A stretch of 64,000 bases of DNA from Alphaproteobacteria bacterium (GCA_963668305.2 CAXXPN010000002.1:2592001-2656000); one strand, 5' to 3'; numbered from the stretch's first letter, positions 6,402 to 35,295 are shown. Numbers and translations: made by a program. Notes: generated from the letters alone by a model not told the origin.

Positions 6402-6920
6402 TGCATGTCATGAGATGTCATGTTTGCCGTAAAGACCGGCGGGATTCCCTTGCGAGGTGTCATGGCATGTCATGAGATGTCATGGTCTGGATATGCATGA
6501 TGCATATGCGATGGCCGTTTCGAACATATCGCTTTCCTTGCTGCACTCGTTGCCCCGGCCGCGCCGACGCCGTGTTCCTGCGTGCCCTTCATGCTGTTCT
6601 TTCGTCTCGCCTCGTTTCGTTCCGATCCCGTCTTCACGCCACCCCGCCCCCCGTTGCAAGGGTCCCTTTTCCGCGCGTATCGCGCGTGGGCGGGCGGGCG
6701 CGTCGGCGCCGGCGCGGTTTGCGTGCCTGATTGCGCGCGCGAGGCGGAGGACGCACGTCTCCCGCCCGTTCCCGCCGGGGTTTTCGGCCCCAGCCGTTCT
6801 TATGCGCAAAAAAGCGAAAGGCGGCCCCGGAAGCCGCCTCTCTCCTCTCATACTAACACACTTTTTTCAGGATCAAGCTTTAGTCAGGAATTATTTCAAA
6901 AATTTCGGGAATGTACTACT
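6402..6920 (-). repeat. Dispersed intergenic element, copy 1
   Basis: Shares the 31-nt core (6706-6736), GGAGACGTG, GATACGCGCG, GAACGAAACG, the terminal hairpin and the 10-bp TGTCATG repeats with the copies at ~25.8 kb and ~34.5 kb; ends approximate. Confidence 0.85.
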
Positions 6921-6929
6921 TGAGGCTTG

Positions 6930-7110
6930 TACCAGCGGTCCTGGATCGGAACCGATGACGAGGCCGTCCCCTTTCGTCCCCGGCGAAGGCAGGAGCCCAT
7001 GTCGTCATCGCGGCCATCGAGCCGGGACCCCGGTTCCCGAGGCCGCTGCAGCCGGTGAAGAACGGAGCGAACCGTCCGAGGTTTCCGAGAGGCCCGGAAA
7101 ACAGCGTGGA
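6930..7110. repeat. Degenerate REP/MITE-like segment
   Basis: Starts TACCAGCG-N10-GGAACCGAT, like the termini at 61.0-61.3 kb; contains GTCCCCGGCGAAGGCAGGAGCCCA, resembling alphaproteobacterial REPs. Confidence 0.4.
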
Positions 7111-7117
7111 TTCCCGT

Positions 7118-8235
7118 CTACGCCGCCATTGCCTCCATCGGCTCGCGGTATGGATAGCCGAGCGCGTCTGCGACCTCCCTGCATGTCACCTCGCCGGCAT
7201 GCACGTTGAGACCGTTGCGAAGGTGGCGATCGTCGGCCAGCGCACGGCGGTAGCCCTTGTCGGCCAGCGCCAGCACATGCGGAAGCGTTGCGTTGTTGAG
7301 CGCATGGGTCGATGTCTGCGGGACCGCGCCGGGCATGTTGGCCACGCAATAGTGGACCACGTCGTGGACGATGTAGGTCGGGTCGCTGTGCGTGGTGGGG
7401 TGCGAAGTCTCGAAGCAGCCTCCCTGGTCGATGGCGACATCGACCACCACCGAGCCCGGCTTCATCCGCCGGATCATGTCCTCCGTGACGAGTTTCGGCG
7501 CAGCCGCGCCCGGGATGAGCACGCCGCCGATCACCACGTCCGCGTCGGTGACGTGGCGGTCGATCGCGGTACGGGTGGAGTAAGCGGTGTCGAGCGGGCC
7601 TCCGAACTGGCGCCACAACGCCCTCAGCGCCCCCGCCGAGCGGTCTATGGCCCAGGTATCGGCACCCATCCCCATCGCGATATGCGCGGCGTGGGTGCCC
7701 ACCACCCCGCCGCCGATGATGACCACCTTGGCCCGCGGCACTCCGGGCGCGCCGCCGAGCAGCATTCCCTTGCCCCCATTGACCTTTTCAAGCGCGTGAG
7801 CCGCGGCCTGGATGGAGAGCCGGCCCGCTACCTCCGACATCGGCGCGAGCAGGGGCAGGCCGCCGCCCGCCAGGTAACCGTCTCGTAGGCGATGCAGACC
7901 GCCTTGCTCCTGACGAGGTCCTCGGCCTGCTCGGGGTCCGGGGCGAGATGCAGGTAGGTGAAAAGCACCTGCCCCTCGCGCAGCATGGCGCGCTCCGCGG
8001 CCAGCGGCTCCTTGACCTTCACGATCATCTCCGCCCGCTCGAAGACCTCCTGCGCGCTGTCAACGATCTCGCCGCCTGCCGCGGCATAGCCGGCGTCGTC
8101 AGCCCCGATGCCCGCTCCGGCGCCTCGCTCCACGAGCACGCGGTGACCGTGCAGGACCGCTTCGTTCACACTGTCGGGCGTGAGGCCCACACGGTATTCG
8201 TGATCCTTGGTCTCGCTGGGTATCCCGATGAGCAT
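7118..8235 (-). pseudogene. ald: Alanine dehydrogenase, frameshifted near 7870
   Basis: MLIGIPSETKDHEYRVGLTP...AYETVT in one frame; GGLPLLAPMSEVAGR...HYCVANMPGAVP in another; apparent 1-nt loss. Confidence 0.88.
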
Positions 8236-8385
8236 GGCGATGATCTCCATGACGAGTGAGGGTGTCGAATCCCGGCCCGCTCCCACTGTCCGCCGCGTCG
8301 GGCAGGAGATGACGGCACATATCATGAAATGTGGTGAGACGGCGGGTGATCTTCCAGGCCCGGCCGCCGCAGGTCCCGCCCCGCC

Positions 8386-32642: not shown

Positions 32643-32713
32643 TCGTGCCGCCGCCCCTCTCCCCCCGGAAAGCGCGGAACCTAACAGTGCCCCCCGGCGC
32701 TGTAAATGGCGGC

Positions 32714-33250
32714 TCAGATGCGGGTCGAGAGCGCGATCGCCAGTTTCGAGGCGGTGTTAACAGCCCGATAAAGCAGGCCGTAGGCCGGCGCCTGCTCGGC
32801 TCCGGCATCGAGCGCCGTGTCGCGGTGCTCCAGCTCCTCGGCCCGAAACTCCTCGATAGCCGCCGCCAGTTCCGGCTCCTCGTCGCCCAGCGCTTCGAGT
32901 TGGCCCGCATAGTGCTCGTCGATGGCTTCCTCGACGGCAACGGTGCATGCCATTGCCGCGCGCTCGCCCAAGGCTGCCGTGGCCGCGCCGAGCGCAAAGC
33001 CGGCCAGGTGCCAGAGAGGCTGCAATGCGGTCGGCCGAACGCGCCGTCCGACAATTTCGGCCTCGAAATAGGCGAGATGGCGGGCCTCCTGCCGCGCCAT
33101 GTGCCGCAGCGCCGGCCCGGCCGGCCCGCGTCCGAGCACGGCAAGCTGGCCTTCGTAGATGCGCTGCGCGCCGTATTCGCCCGCATGGTTGACGCGGACC
33201 ATCGCCTCGACGCGCGCCTCTGTCGTCGGGTCTCCGGGGAGGCGCTTCAT
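32714..33250 (-). CDS. coq7: Demethoxyubiquinone hydroxylase
   Basis: [19 protein letters not shown] and EELEHRD motifs. Confidence 0.93.
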
Positions 33251-33738
33251 GCCGCTCTGCTTCTCGCTGCGGAAATCCTGCGCTTGAGCGCGCCGGCCGC
33301 CATGCCCGCCAGCGCCAGGGAAAGCAGGCCGTTCCAGGCCGCCATCGAGAGACCCAGAAACGACCATGCCGCCTCGTCGCAGCGCGCGGGGGCGGCATTC
33401 AGCAGGCGCTCGCGCAGTTCGGCGACCGTCTGCGCCGGCGGGCCGCCTTCGCAGGCGGCCAGGCCGGGCCACCATTGCTGCTCGACGCCGACATGGAACC
33501 CGGCCAGGCCCGCGCCCACCAGCGCGGCCAGGCCGGCGAGCCCTACGGGAACCGCCGCAACCGGACCCCGGAAGCCCAGCGAAACAGCGGCCAGCAGGGC
33601 AATCGCAACATGCGGCCAGCGCTGCCAGACGCAGAGCGGGCAGGGCTCCAGCCCTCCCAGATGCTGGAAGGCGAAGGCTGCGGCCAGCGCCGCCAGGCTG
33701 CCGGCAGCCAGCGCCGCCGGATGGAGCAGGAACCGCAT
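33247..33738 (-). CDS. dsbB: Disulfide bond formation protein B family
   Basis: PCPLCVWQRWP, HVGVEQQWW and CD...LGLSMA motifs. Confidence 0.9.
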   Translation of the reverse strand: MRFLLHPAALAAGSLAALAAAFAFQHLGGLEPCPLCVWQRWPHVAIALLAAVSLGFRGPVAAVPVGLAGLAALVGAGLAGFHVGVEQQWWPGLAACEGGPPAQTVAELRERLLNAAPARCDEAAWSFLGLSMAAWNGLLSLALAGMAAGALKRRISAARSRAA

Positions 33739-34316
33739 CACAACACCTTCAACATCACGAAGCCTGCCACGAGCAGGACCGCGAAAGCGAGCGCCATTGG
33801 CCCGAGCCGGCGTTCGATAAACGCACGGAGCGGCGCGCCGAAACGCCAGAGGAGTGCGGCGACGATGAAGAAGCGCAGCCCCCTGCCCGCCGCCGAGGCC
33901 AGGACGAAGGCGCCGATGTCCGTGCCGGCGAAGCCGCTGGCGATGGTGAAGACCTTGTAGGGGATCGGCGAAAAGGCCGCGGTGAACACGATGAGGCCGC
34001 CATGGGCGTTGTAGAGCGCCTGCGCTTCCGCAAAGGCCTCGCCGTAGCCGTAGAATTCCAGCAGCGGCGCGCCCACGGCGTCGAAGAGGAACGCCCCGGC
34101 GCCGTAGCCCGCCACGCCGCCCGCAACGGACGCGCCGGTGCAGACCGCCGCATAGCGCCATGCCCGCCCGGGCGCCGCCAGCACCATCGGGATGAGCAGC
34201 ACATCCACGGGCACGGGGAAAACGACGCTCTCGGCGAAGGCGACCGCCGCCAGTATCCACACTGCGCGCGGATGCCCGGCAAGGCGCATGGTTCCGTCAT
34301 AGAGGCGGCGCAGCAT
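33738..34316 (-). CDS. DedA/YqaA family membrane protein
   Basis: FAESVVFPVPVD, PIPYKVFTI and GRGLRF motifs. Confidence 0.9.
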   Translation of the reverse strand: MLRRLYDGTMRLAGHPRAVWILAAVAFAESVVFPVPVDVLLIPMVLAAPGRAWRYAAVCTGASVAGGVAGYGAGAFLFDAVGAPLLEFYGYGEAFAEAQALYNAHGGLIVFTAAFSPIPYKVFTIASGFAGTDIGAFVLASAAGRGLRFFIVAALLWRFGAPLRAFIERRLGPMALAFAVLLVAGFVMLKVL

Positions 34317-34456
34317 GATGCGGGTCCACATAGGCGCACCCGACCGGGCGGGCAATGCGACGCCTCGCTCGCCGGGACGACAACCGATGCCACCGCTCCC
34401 GGCCCGGCACCCAGGCGCCCGCCGCGCGTTCCCGGCGGAGGCGGGACCTGCCGCAG

Positions 34457-35295
34457 GCGTCATGAAATGTCATGTTTTGTCATGCGGCGCCCTTGGCCGC
34501 CCTCGTGATGTGTCACGAAATGTCATGATCTGCATGCGGATAACGCATGCCCACCGGCCCGTTTGGGCATGAGGGCCGTTGCGCCACCAACCCCCTCCTT
34601 CGCTTGCGGGAAAGGCCCTCTCCCGACTTCCCCCGCAAACCTACCGTATGCACATCTCGTTTCGGTCTGTAACCGGCGCACCCGGCAGCCGGGCTGCGCC
34701 GATCTCCGCGACTGCCTTCGTCGCCCCGGACGCCCGCAGGGCGAGCCGGGGCCTCGATGCAACGGGGCTCCGGCCGCACGAGGCCCCGGATCGAGGTTCG
34801 GGGCGACAAATGGGGGCGTGCAGTCCAAGGCCGCCGGAAATGCGTGAACCCGGTAGCCCCGTAAGCGGGAGATGAGCTTGTGCGGCGGCAGGCCCGTTCT
34901 GCCGAAGCTGTGTTTGTCCGCATCCTGCATGTCCTTCCTTCATCCCGTTTCGTTCCCCTCCGTTCCGTCCTCCCCCGCCTCGGCTCGAGCGGGTGGCGGG
35001 ACCCTTTGCCGCGCGTATCCCGCGCGCGCTCCTGTCGGCGCGGGCCCGCGTTTCGCGCCGGCGCGGTTCGCGCGCCTGATTGCGCCTGCGCGCTCGTATC
35101 CGCGCCCGCGTGAGCCCAGGCGCAAGGCGCACGTCTCCTGTCCGTTTCCCAAGGGCTTTTTCGCGCCGGCGCGAACCGGGAGAAGAAGCGGCCCCGCGCG
35201 GATACCGTTTCCTTGCCTCCCGTCCCTATCCTAGCACAGATATTTCACGGTCAAGCCTCTTGCGGGAATTTTTTCTGACATTTAGAACATGAACC
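34457..35295 (-). repeat. Dispersed intergenic element, copy 3 (with internal REP-like insertion)
   Basis: 31-nt core at 35055-35085; (T/C)GTCA(T/C)G repeats at 34458, 34468, 34478, 34511 and 34521; hairpin at 34532-34550. Confidence 0.85.
34719..34808. repeat. REP-like palindrome pair
   Basis: GTCGCCCCGGA...CCGGGGCC and GGCCCCGGATC...CGGGGCGAC; a similar pair occurs at 61321-61417. Confidence 0.6.

Follow-up and report, generated by a model that had tools for sequence, protein, structure and literature searches.

Three intergenic repeats of an alphaproteobacterial genome as possible non-coding derivatives of a multicopy cassette carrying a small-terminase-like gene

What kind of element is it that occurs as three collinear intergenic copies within 64,000 nucleotides (nt) of a genome labelled Alphaproteobacteria bacterium (GCA_963668305.2)? 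The stretch analysed, called the window here, is G000:C2:2592001-2656000, where G000 designates the genome (5.5 Mb, 67.5% G+C, three contigs). An earlier note on this DNA had proposed a structured RNA or leader, a non-autonomous element or a chromosome-wide protein-loading site. We find that the copies belong to a large family whose long members encode a protein related to phage small terminases (TerS), and we tentatively interpret the three stretches as non-coding derivatives of a multicopy cassette that stems from a phage DNA-packaging module, a reading that we consider quite possible, short of probable. The copies lie where the note had placed them, at 6402-6920 (- strand; c1), 25780-26306 (+; c2) and 34457-35295 (-; c3), as judged by reading each on its own strand and by alignment. 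They are intergenic, none of the three overlapping a confident open reading frame (ORF) in a crude gene call. They also keep the block order described for them: an AT-rich end, TTGA(C/T), TG.TA..AT, a GC hairpin, GGGAGACGTG and a 31-nt core, followed by GATACGCGCG..AGGG.CCC, GAACGAAACG, a Shine-Dalgarno-like GGAGG with an ATG, a variable middle, a hairpin and CATGAC units, spaced in the window copies by exactly 10 nt. The core GCGCAATCAGGCRCGCRAACCGCGCCGGCGC matched the window exactly three times, at 6706-6736 (-), 25972-26002 (+) and 35055-35085 (-), against no match in 100 shuffles.

The three copies are real, but their number understates the family. With nhmmer, a profile of the 5' module (the AT-rich end through the ribosome-binding site, RBS) matched 103 places in G000 and, after one iteration, 118, including 67 of nearly full length; a fourth copy is located just outside the start of the window. 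CATGAC arrays, defined as at least two units at 9-11-nt (or double) spacing with nearby runs merged, number 129. Among them, 104 follow a 5' module of the same strand within less than 1.6 kb, and 17 of the 25 that have no module upstream consist of two units only. Pairing modules with arrays gave 95 units of 174-1854 nt (median ~456 nt; nine of at least 1.35 kb), 93 of which lie between confident ORFs. The longest phased CATGAC run per near-full 5' module (n=67) was 0 in 3, 1 in 3, 2 in 21, 3 in 31 and at least 4 in 9 cases. The preferred array reads ggA.CATGACAaaaCATGACATtTCATGACACtT, with A/T-rich spacers despite the G+C-rich genome. Conservation starts ~40 nt upstream of TTGAC (tTTcGTTC ... 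GAAATAATTCC ... CTTGACC, 15 nt, TGcTAGAAT) and stops ~25 nt past the last CATGAC. No conserved inverted termini were seen in end profiles of 48 copies, consistent with the earlier remark that terminal inverted repeats and a transposase are missing. A keyword-level search of the full-text literature found no published description of such a unit.

Long copies in which a protein gene occupies the variable middle, as anticipated by the earlier note, do exist. Six length-outlier units were found to carry one ORF each between the 5' module and the array, and tblastn located eight loci at 80-100% protein identity plus two relics in G000. The full cassette of ~1.35 kb is thus composed of a promoter-like end (GAAATAATTCC, TTGACC, TGcTAGAAT), a 5' hairpin, a GC-rich leader of ~250 nt that holds the invariant core, an RBS, the TerS-like gene and a CATGAC array. 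No TerL, portal or capsid gene stands beside the TerS-like ORF, which is the only one between 5' module and array in the long copies. It ends within the array (...PGHDIA*); since the 10-nt spacing of the units places TGA in all three frames, any ORF that enters the array stops there. In one deletion relic, TerS residues 1-27 are fused directly to residues 295-323, the kind of event that would yield the short forms, and which therefore links them to the long ones. The suggestions of a leader and of a non-autonomous element both fit this picture, the 5' block being the promoter-like end and leader of the TerS-like gene, with deletion relics connecting the forms.

The TerS-like protein P0001 (323 aa, in a family of ~320 aa) has an SF6/SPP1-type small-terminase DNA-binding domain at its N-terminus. 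It matches Pfam Terminase_2 (PF03592) with E = 2.6e-13 and 51 bits against a cut-off of 26, and PHROG 51 (phrog_51), small terminase. In a structure model based on 40 homologs (mean pLDDT 60.9), residues 11-60 are the sole confident part (pLDDT 88-94). The best Foldseek match was the SF6 G1P DNA-binding domain 4zc3 (TM 0.86 on the target, root-mean-square deviation (rmsd) 1.5 over 56 columns, 41% identity), followed by a weak alignment to the full-length SPP1-like TerS 3zqq (E = 0.04, rmsd 11.6). Helices at residues 69-106, modelled at pLDDT 60-72, could form an oligomerisation core. The TerS-like gene is under purifying selection: the ratio of nonsynonymous to synonymous substitutions (dN/dS) of its eight paralogs has a median of 0.36, with 0.17 for residues 1-115 and 0.45 for residues 116-300. 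An ordinary small terminase gene, the ninth, is located at C1:663317 of G000, between transposase genes.

Other units carry other cargo. A second protein of 161 aa (MTATDPRP...), present in four units or tblastn hits, matched no Pfam family and nothing in the Atlas, and further units have short ORFs of several types after the conserved RBS. The best-conserved of these, a mini-ORF ('MPKT...') that has 41 codons in 9 of the 14 instances found, was rejected as a conserved protein, its differences showing no bias by codon position (470/513/480). The ortholog of c2 in the relative G015 holds a different ORF. Given this difference and the lack of codon-position bias in the mini-ORFs, the window copies are best called non-coding.

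The family thus shows a cis/trans layout: a few copies encode a DNA-binding protein of a phage packaging family, and the flanking DNA is common to all. A count of triple arrays, TerS-like genes and cores covered each of the 17 genomes of the genus. The gene is present in 13 of them, with 5-17 intact hits per genome, and all 13 have 33-171 triple arrays. The four genomes without the gene have 0, 0, 0 and 9 triple arrays; three lack gene, arrays and core alike, and the fourth, G009, has 44 cores and 9 arrays. In the genome G011, eight gene hits and 104 arrays accompany only two cores. Arrays therefore track the TerS-like gene better than the core does, and the core need not accompany it. A single variant accounts for 38 of the 44 cores in G009, whose copies are ~90-95% alike. 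At least three intact CATGAC units were retained there in 2 of 14 copies examined versus 40 of 67 in G000 (Fisher p = 0.003), and at least two in 5 of 14 versus 61 of 67 (Fisher p = 3e-5), several G009 copies showing point-mutated units. The 5' module was detected in 13 of the 16 other genomes of the genus, in none of eight genomes from other genera of the family and in none of 16 genomes from other families of the class; records encoding the protein are all metagenome-assembled genomes named 'Alphaproteobacteria bacterium'. Outside the genus, where the comparison covers two lineages only, a 56%-identical TerS-like gene has a short leader and no 5' module, yet CATGAC units at its end, and a 51%-identical lineage has a different putative recognition helix and another short repeat at the 3' end.

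The one-helical-turn units, their A/T spacers and the co-occurrence of arrays and gene lead us to favour the CATGAC arrays as putative binding sites of the TerS-like protein, an assignment that is quite possible and that we make with some reserve. The protein-loading site of the earlier note is in this form our preferred reading of the arrays; its extension to the whole chromosome is taken up below. The TerS-like protein would act in trans by binding the phased arrays, and one helix turn per unit would suit a ring of helix-turn-helix (HTH) domains, as at SPP1-type pac sites. Short copies would persist because their cis sites (promoter or leader, and array) are kept when the gene is lost. More speculatively, a phage or phage-like packaging machine might start from these sites on the chromosome, and the unit might then spread or persist through packaging and homologous recombination, not transposition. 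That the ~100 units per genome are chromosome-wide pac-like loading sites, on which a few TerS-like proteins would act in trans, is a further step that we regard as doubtful.

How far does the cassette resemble known packaging systems? Excerpts of PMC4737164 describe the SPP1 pac as spanning promoters and the start of the terS gene and as holding direct repeats, and SPP1-type TerS as thought to select and wrap bent DNA on a ring of weak HTH motifs. The conserved DNA with direct repeats around the promoter and ends of the cassette gene recalls what is described in these excerpts (PMC4737164). The cassette protein also shares with the SPP1/SF6 small terminase (G1P, PF03592) an N-terminal domain with 41% identity to SF6 G1P when the structures are aligned, followed in the model by candidate oligomerisation helices. 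Unlike the SPP1/SF6 module, however, the cassette is not adjoined by a gene for TerL, portal or capsid; the genome has a single TerL, in a separate prophage remnant. The TerS-like gene occurs 5-17 times per genome together with ~90 further gene-less copies, and, unlike in SPP1 pac, the repeats keep a strict 10-nt spacing and stand at the gene's 3' end. The pac site of phage P1 consists of hexanucleotide repeats in two clusters. The cassette hexamers likewise form two clusters, 3 + 2 in c1 and 3 + 3 in c3, and each CATGAC unit holds the 4-nt palindrome CATG, by analogy a candidate methylation site; sequence and protein family differ from those of P1.

According to excerpts of PMC11389934, terminase genes or cos/pac sites suggest mobilisation by phages, and satellites with their own TerS (PICI, PICMI) carry integrase and replication genes. 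Like these satellites, the cassette is a chromosomal unit with a TerS-like gene and a presumed packaging signal and without capsid genes. In contrast to them, it measures 1.35 kb, much too little for packaging as a unit, lacks genes for an integrase, replication or a regulator, and is present in ~100 copies instead of one or a few, many of them fixed at orthologous sites. Among intergenic repeats, Correia elements, BOX and RIME are comparable. With these and with miniature inverted-repeat transposable elements (MITEs) the cassette shares its dispersed intergenic and modular nature, its internal-deletion derivatives and the promoter-like sequence aboard. It differs from MITEs in having no terminal inverted repeats, no recognisable target duplication and no parent transposase, the 'parent' copies encoding a terminase-like DNA-binding protein instead. 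As regards REP/RAYT and IS200/IS605-derived (PATE) elements, the cassette has a 3' hairpin, and a Y1 transposase was not found in 16 of the 17 genus genomes. HEARO/IscB omega-RNA units, too, have a conserved non-coding block of ~300 nt before an ORF and many copies with or without it; unlike them, the cassette has no Rfam match or covarying fold beyond the 5' hairpin, and its ORF is a TerS-like HTH protein with no nuclease domain.

The promoter-like end seen by the earlier note is conserved and is placed before the leader of the TerS-like gene, but an E. coli-type sigma-70 scan called no promoter in c2. We keep the term promoter-like on the grounds of this conservation and position, the hairpin at the expected 5' end and the orientation bias. 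In tandem intergenic regions, 44 units run in the direction of the neighbouring genes, against 11 that do not (p = 9e-6, with a crude gene call that covers 63% of the genome), which fits active transcription. The sequence TTGACC...GCTAGAAT resembles what we take to be the housekeeping promoter consensus described for Caulobacter. The E. coli-type scan found no terminator in c2 either. RNA libraries of three studies contain contigs that match conserved blocks of further family members, two of these contigs reaching from core to array. These contigs are no proof of transcription, since the neighbouring gene is covered too and DNA carry-over is possible; their uncovered parts are uninformative.

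Several observations weigh against an origin in a packaging module, or against a loading function of the arrays. No TerS C-terminal barrel is predicted in the model of the TerS-like protein. Where SPP1/SF6 TerS has this barrel, the ~200 C-terminal residues are acidic, partly helical, mostly modelled at low confidence and without a family match; they are conserved in blocks across more than 300 database relatives, all of this lineage. Single DNA-binding domains of SF6 TerS are described, in excerpts of PMC4737164, as little sequence-specific for pac repeats, so that repeats beside a terS gene are no proof of binding sites. The single TerL and one portal gene of G000 belong to a broken prophage cut by an insertion sequence (IS), and any packaging partner would therefore need to come from outside. 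This remnant (C1:920300-928400; 6300-14400 of locus L131) has a low G+C content at third codon positions and comprises an integrase, an HTH protein, TerL and a portal fragment, then IS21-like genes. The genomes of the genus are kin, so that their co-occurrence counts lack independence, and G009 stands alone as a case; since the 5' module was apparently amplified there recently in the absence of the TerS-like gene, its spread may not need the protein. In contrast to SPP1/SF6 terminases, the cassette protein has no close relative on viral contigs: in the collection searched, none was closer than 35% identity (over the HTH), and no core was present. Finally, the promoter-like end of c2 went uncalled by the E. 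coli-type scan owing to its 15-nt spacer.

Comparison between species shows that many copies have long been kept at fixed sites, while other sites gained or lost theirs. Twelve of 20 copies in the relatives G015 and G016 lie at sites that have a family member in G000 (one of them 1.5 kb off), and eight are without counterpart. Seven of the 12 align straight through at 87-92% identity, like their flanks. Orthologous copies in sister species are in this respect like the flanking genes. We share the view that the family is real, selected and as yet unnamed. The c3 site is filled in all five relatives searched and the c2 site in five of nine informative ones. At the c1 site, G016 and G012 have no copy: the flanks adjoin each other there, with ~18 nt instead of 757 nt. 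Conversely, the copies L108 (G015) and L154 (G016) are present where G000 has intergenic regions of 40-70 nt. No clean target duplication was seen in the filled/empty pairs at c1, L108 or L154, whose sites are blurred by stacked repeats; exact ends and duplications are unreadable because filled and empty sites differ by several such repeats instead of one clean insertion. For c1, the nearest paralog reaches only 81% identity, which makes a recent local copy event unlikely; import of the whole intergenic segment by recombination would fit. The coding units of G016 and G015 (L153-L161) often have their two flanks beside two different G000 copies. These units therefore sit at synteny breakpoints, suggesting rearrangement via recombination between copies.

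The structured RNA proposed earlier found no support beyond the 5' hairpin, the only part that covaries. RNAalifold on 68 copies from several genomes gave a consensus of -4.5 kcal/mol with 12 pairs, one of them compensatory. In five named helices, 82.6% of cells were paired versus 80.9% after shuffling, and seven pairs changed on both sides versus 8.2 in shuffles. In the 5' hairpin (helix 1), 88.5% of cells were paired and four of seven pairs changed on both sides, the pair 95-117 being AU in 33, GC in 12 and GU in 9 copies; the core hairpin is 97% paired yet invariant. The leader therefore appears to be conserved mainly as primary sequence. By eye and uncounted, the stems of the 3' hairpin differ compensatingly between copies (CATATG/CATATG versus CATGCG/CGCATG). 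Three further attempts were set aside: mutual information with average product correction on 50 copies returned mostly non-Watson-Crick top pairs, RNAalifold on 33 copies was uninformative, and single-sequence folds gave discordant long-range helices in two copies. Rfam holds no match over the three copies at gathering score, and none credible at E<=10 over c2; the sole hit in the window was 6S RNA (RF00013, 67.5 bits) at 43216-43376 (+).

Could the family be understood without a role for packaging? A transposase or recombinase acting in trans might recognise the AT-rich 5' end, the 3' hairpin and the CATGAC units of a MITE-like element, with the TerS-like gene as a mere passenger. The ~100 dispersed intergenic copies with their many internal-deletion derivatives suit this idea, as do the gains and losses that separate species (the c1 site vacant in G016 and G012; L108 and L154 filled, with G000 empty), the homogeneous G009 subfamily without TerS-like gene and the compensating stem changes of the 3' hairpin. 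However, the end profiles show no terminal inverted repeats, no filled/empty pair has a clean target duplication, and the Y1 (IS200/RAYT) transposase, PF01797, was not found in 16 of 17 genus genomes, G000 included. The best paralog of the 'new' c1, at 81%, does not point to a recent copy-and-paste source, and an intact gene with 5-17 hits per genome under purifying selection would be odd for a passenger; we consider such an element unlikely. The units could also act as small transcription units at the RNA level, the leader regulating the TerS-like mRNA and the ~90 gene-less copies serving as decoys or forming a small RNA family. A conserved promoter-like end directly before a covarying hairpin, the conserved Shine-Dalgarno sequence and ATG, the co-orientation with neighbouring genes and the RNA-library contigs are in line with this. 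Its probability is lowered to a rather small one by the consensus fold of only -4.5 kcal/mol over 68 copies, the mostly non-Watson-Crick pairs of the mutual-information analysis and the both-side changes of the named structure (7 versus 8.2 shuffled), by a core that is invariant, not covarying, and dispensable in G011, and by the lack of an Rfam family over the copies and of a terminator-like site in c2.

A host might alternatively have domesticated part of a terminase, either as decoys against phage terminases (defence) or as nucleoid or regulatory proteins on the ~100 arrays. Many sites are kept across species at flanking-gene identity, purifying selection includes the non-TerS C-terminal region (dN/dS 0.45) and each genome has multiple diverged paralogs, all compatible with host-side use. 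Three species of the genus do without the whole system, however, and copy number and positions turn over between species, and we find this use improbable. Truncated copies, down to 174 nt, and short ORFs that are unconserved as proteins (470/513/480 by codon position) might finally suggest that the copies are neutral relics: duplicates of a single old gene region, now functionless and in decay. This explanation, already disfavoured, is highly improbable in view of the blocks conserved across species, the arrays and promoter-like end kept in most copies (at least two units in 61 of 67 near-full ones), the decay of arrays specifically in G009, the one genome that lost the gene, and the biased orientation.

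Returning to the window copies as non-coding derivatives of the cassette, their parts can be located as follows. c1 is a short non-coding member of ~512 nt on the - strand. By the family consensus, its promoter-like AT-rich end occupies 6850-6910 and includes GAAATAATTCC, TTGATC (6876-6871) and TGtTAGTAT (6858-6850); a 3' hairpin, GCATATGCA-TCA-TGCATAT, was read from the sequence at 6491-6509, and the CATGAC arrays at 6407-6484 are made of three units (6459-6484) and two units (6407-6422) with a period of 10. c2, also a short non-coding member (+, ~525 nt), heads into the 3' end of a convergent gene. As read from its sequence, it carries a promoter-like AT-rich end at 25795-25845 with TTGACT (25817-25822) and TGcCTAGAT (25836-25844), and a 3' hairpin GCATATG-TGCTGCG-CATATGC at 26243-26263. 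Its 5' hairpin AAGCGGC...GCCGTTT (25860-25881) is helix 1 of the covariation count. A Shine-Dalgarno-like GGAGG with an ATG (26116-26118) at 26105-26118 precedes a short unconserved ORF, and an array of four CATGAC units with a period of 10 is located at 26268-26303. The promoter-like AT-rich end of c3 (-, ~838 nt) was read at 35228-35290, with TTGACC (35254-35249) and TGcTAGGAT (35236-35228). Its arrays (34459-34527) consist of three exact units (34459-34484) and a second array in decay (CATGAC, CGTGAC, CACGAG; 34507-34527). The extra length of c3, noticed earlier as a variable middle, is due to a nested unrelated repeat at 34652-34871 (-), 83% identical to G000 C2:1138240-1138458. Shorter matches to this repeat occur in ~15 further places, and members also adjoin units in G016 (L154).

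Intergenic regions here gather repeats of several families next to one another. Beside units in three genomes (L108 1860-2160, L149 ~460-700 and L154 4520-4610) stands a palindromic MITE-like repeat with the ends TTTCTCACCAGGGTCATGG ... CCATGACCCTGGTGAGAAA, and the short units of G009 (L137-L150) are preceded by a REP-like hairpin, CCCCGGACGGCGCGTCAGCGCCGAGCCGGGG. At 1030-1560 of L108 in G015, a small gene pair, RelB/RelE-like by eye, stands beside two tandem short units, the corresponding G000 site being empty; in the L108 insertion, the end of the upstream gene is also partly duplicated. In the window, the 647-nt stretch at 24300-24950 is 100% identical at 16 other places in G000 and ~81% identical at many places in the genomes G008 and G005, and is probably the end of a currently active insertion sequence. 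CRISPR targeting of the element was also considered, and no spacer of the two G000 arrays (12 + 22 spacers) matched it. These arrays (C1:600668-601532 and C3:277325-278812, with repeats of 37 and 36 nt) are unrelated to the cassette family; in the first, three spacers represent variants of a single CAACCAACCA...GGAAGATCTC stretch.

With ~100 units of a median near 456 nt, the family fills ~1% of the 5.5-Mb genome and brings ~100 strong-looking promoter-like ends with it. It probably also disrupts short-read assemblies of the group, many TerS-like matches being found at contig ends. If the arrays load the TerS-like protein, the element, mobile or domesticated, would be built from the recognition half of a phage packaging motor, without a transposase or capsid genes of its own, and repeat expansion would be tied to transduction. 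If the reading as chromosome-wide loading sites is true, a passing phage or phage-like particle would start headful packaging at defined places round the host chromosome. This would amount to the transposase-free spread of a selfish unit or to built-in gene exchange of the host, distinct from gene transfer agents and from known satellites.

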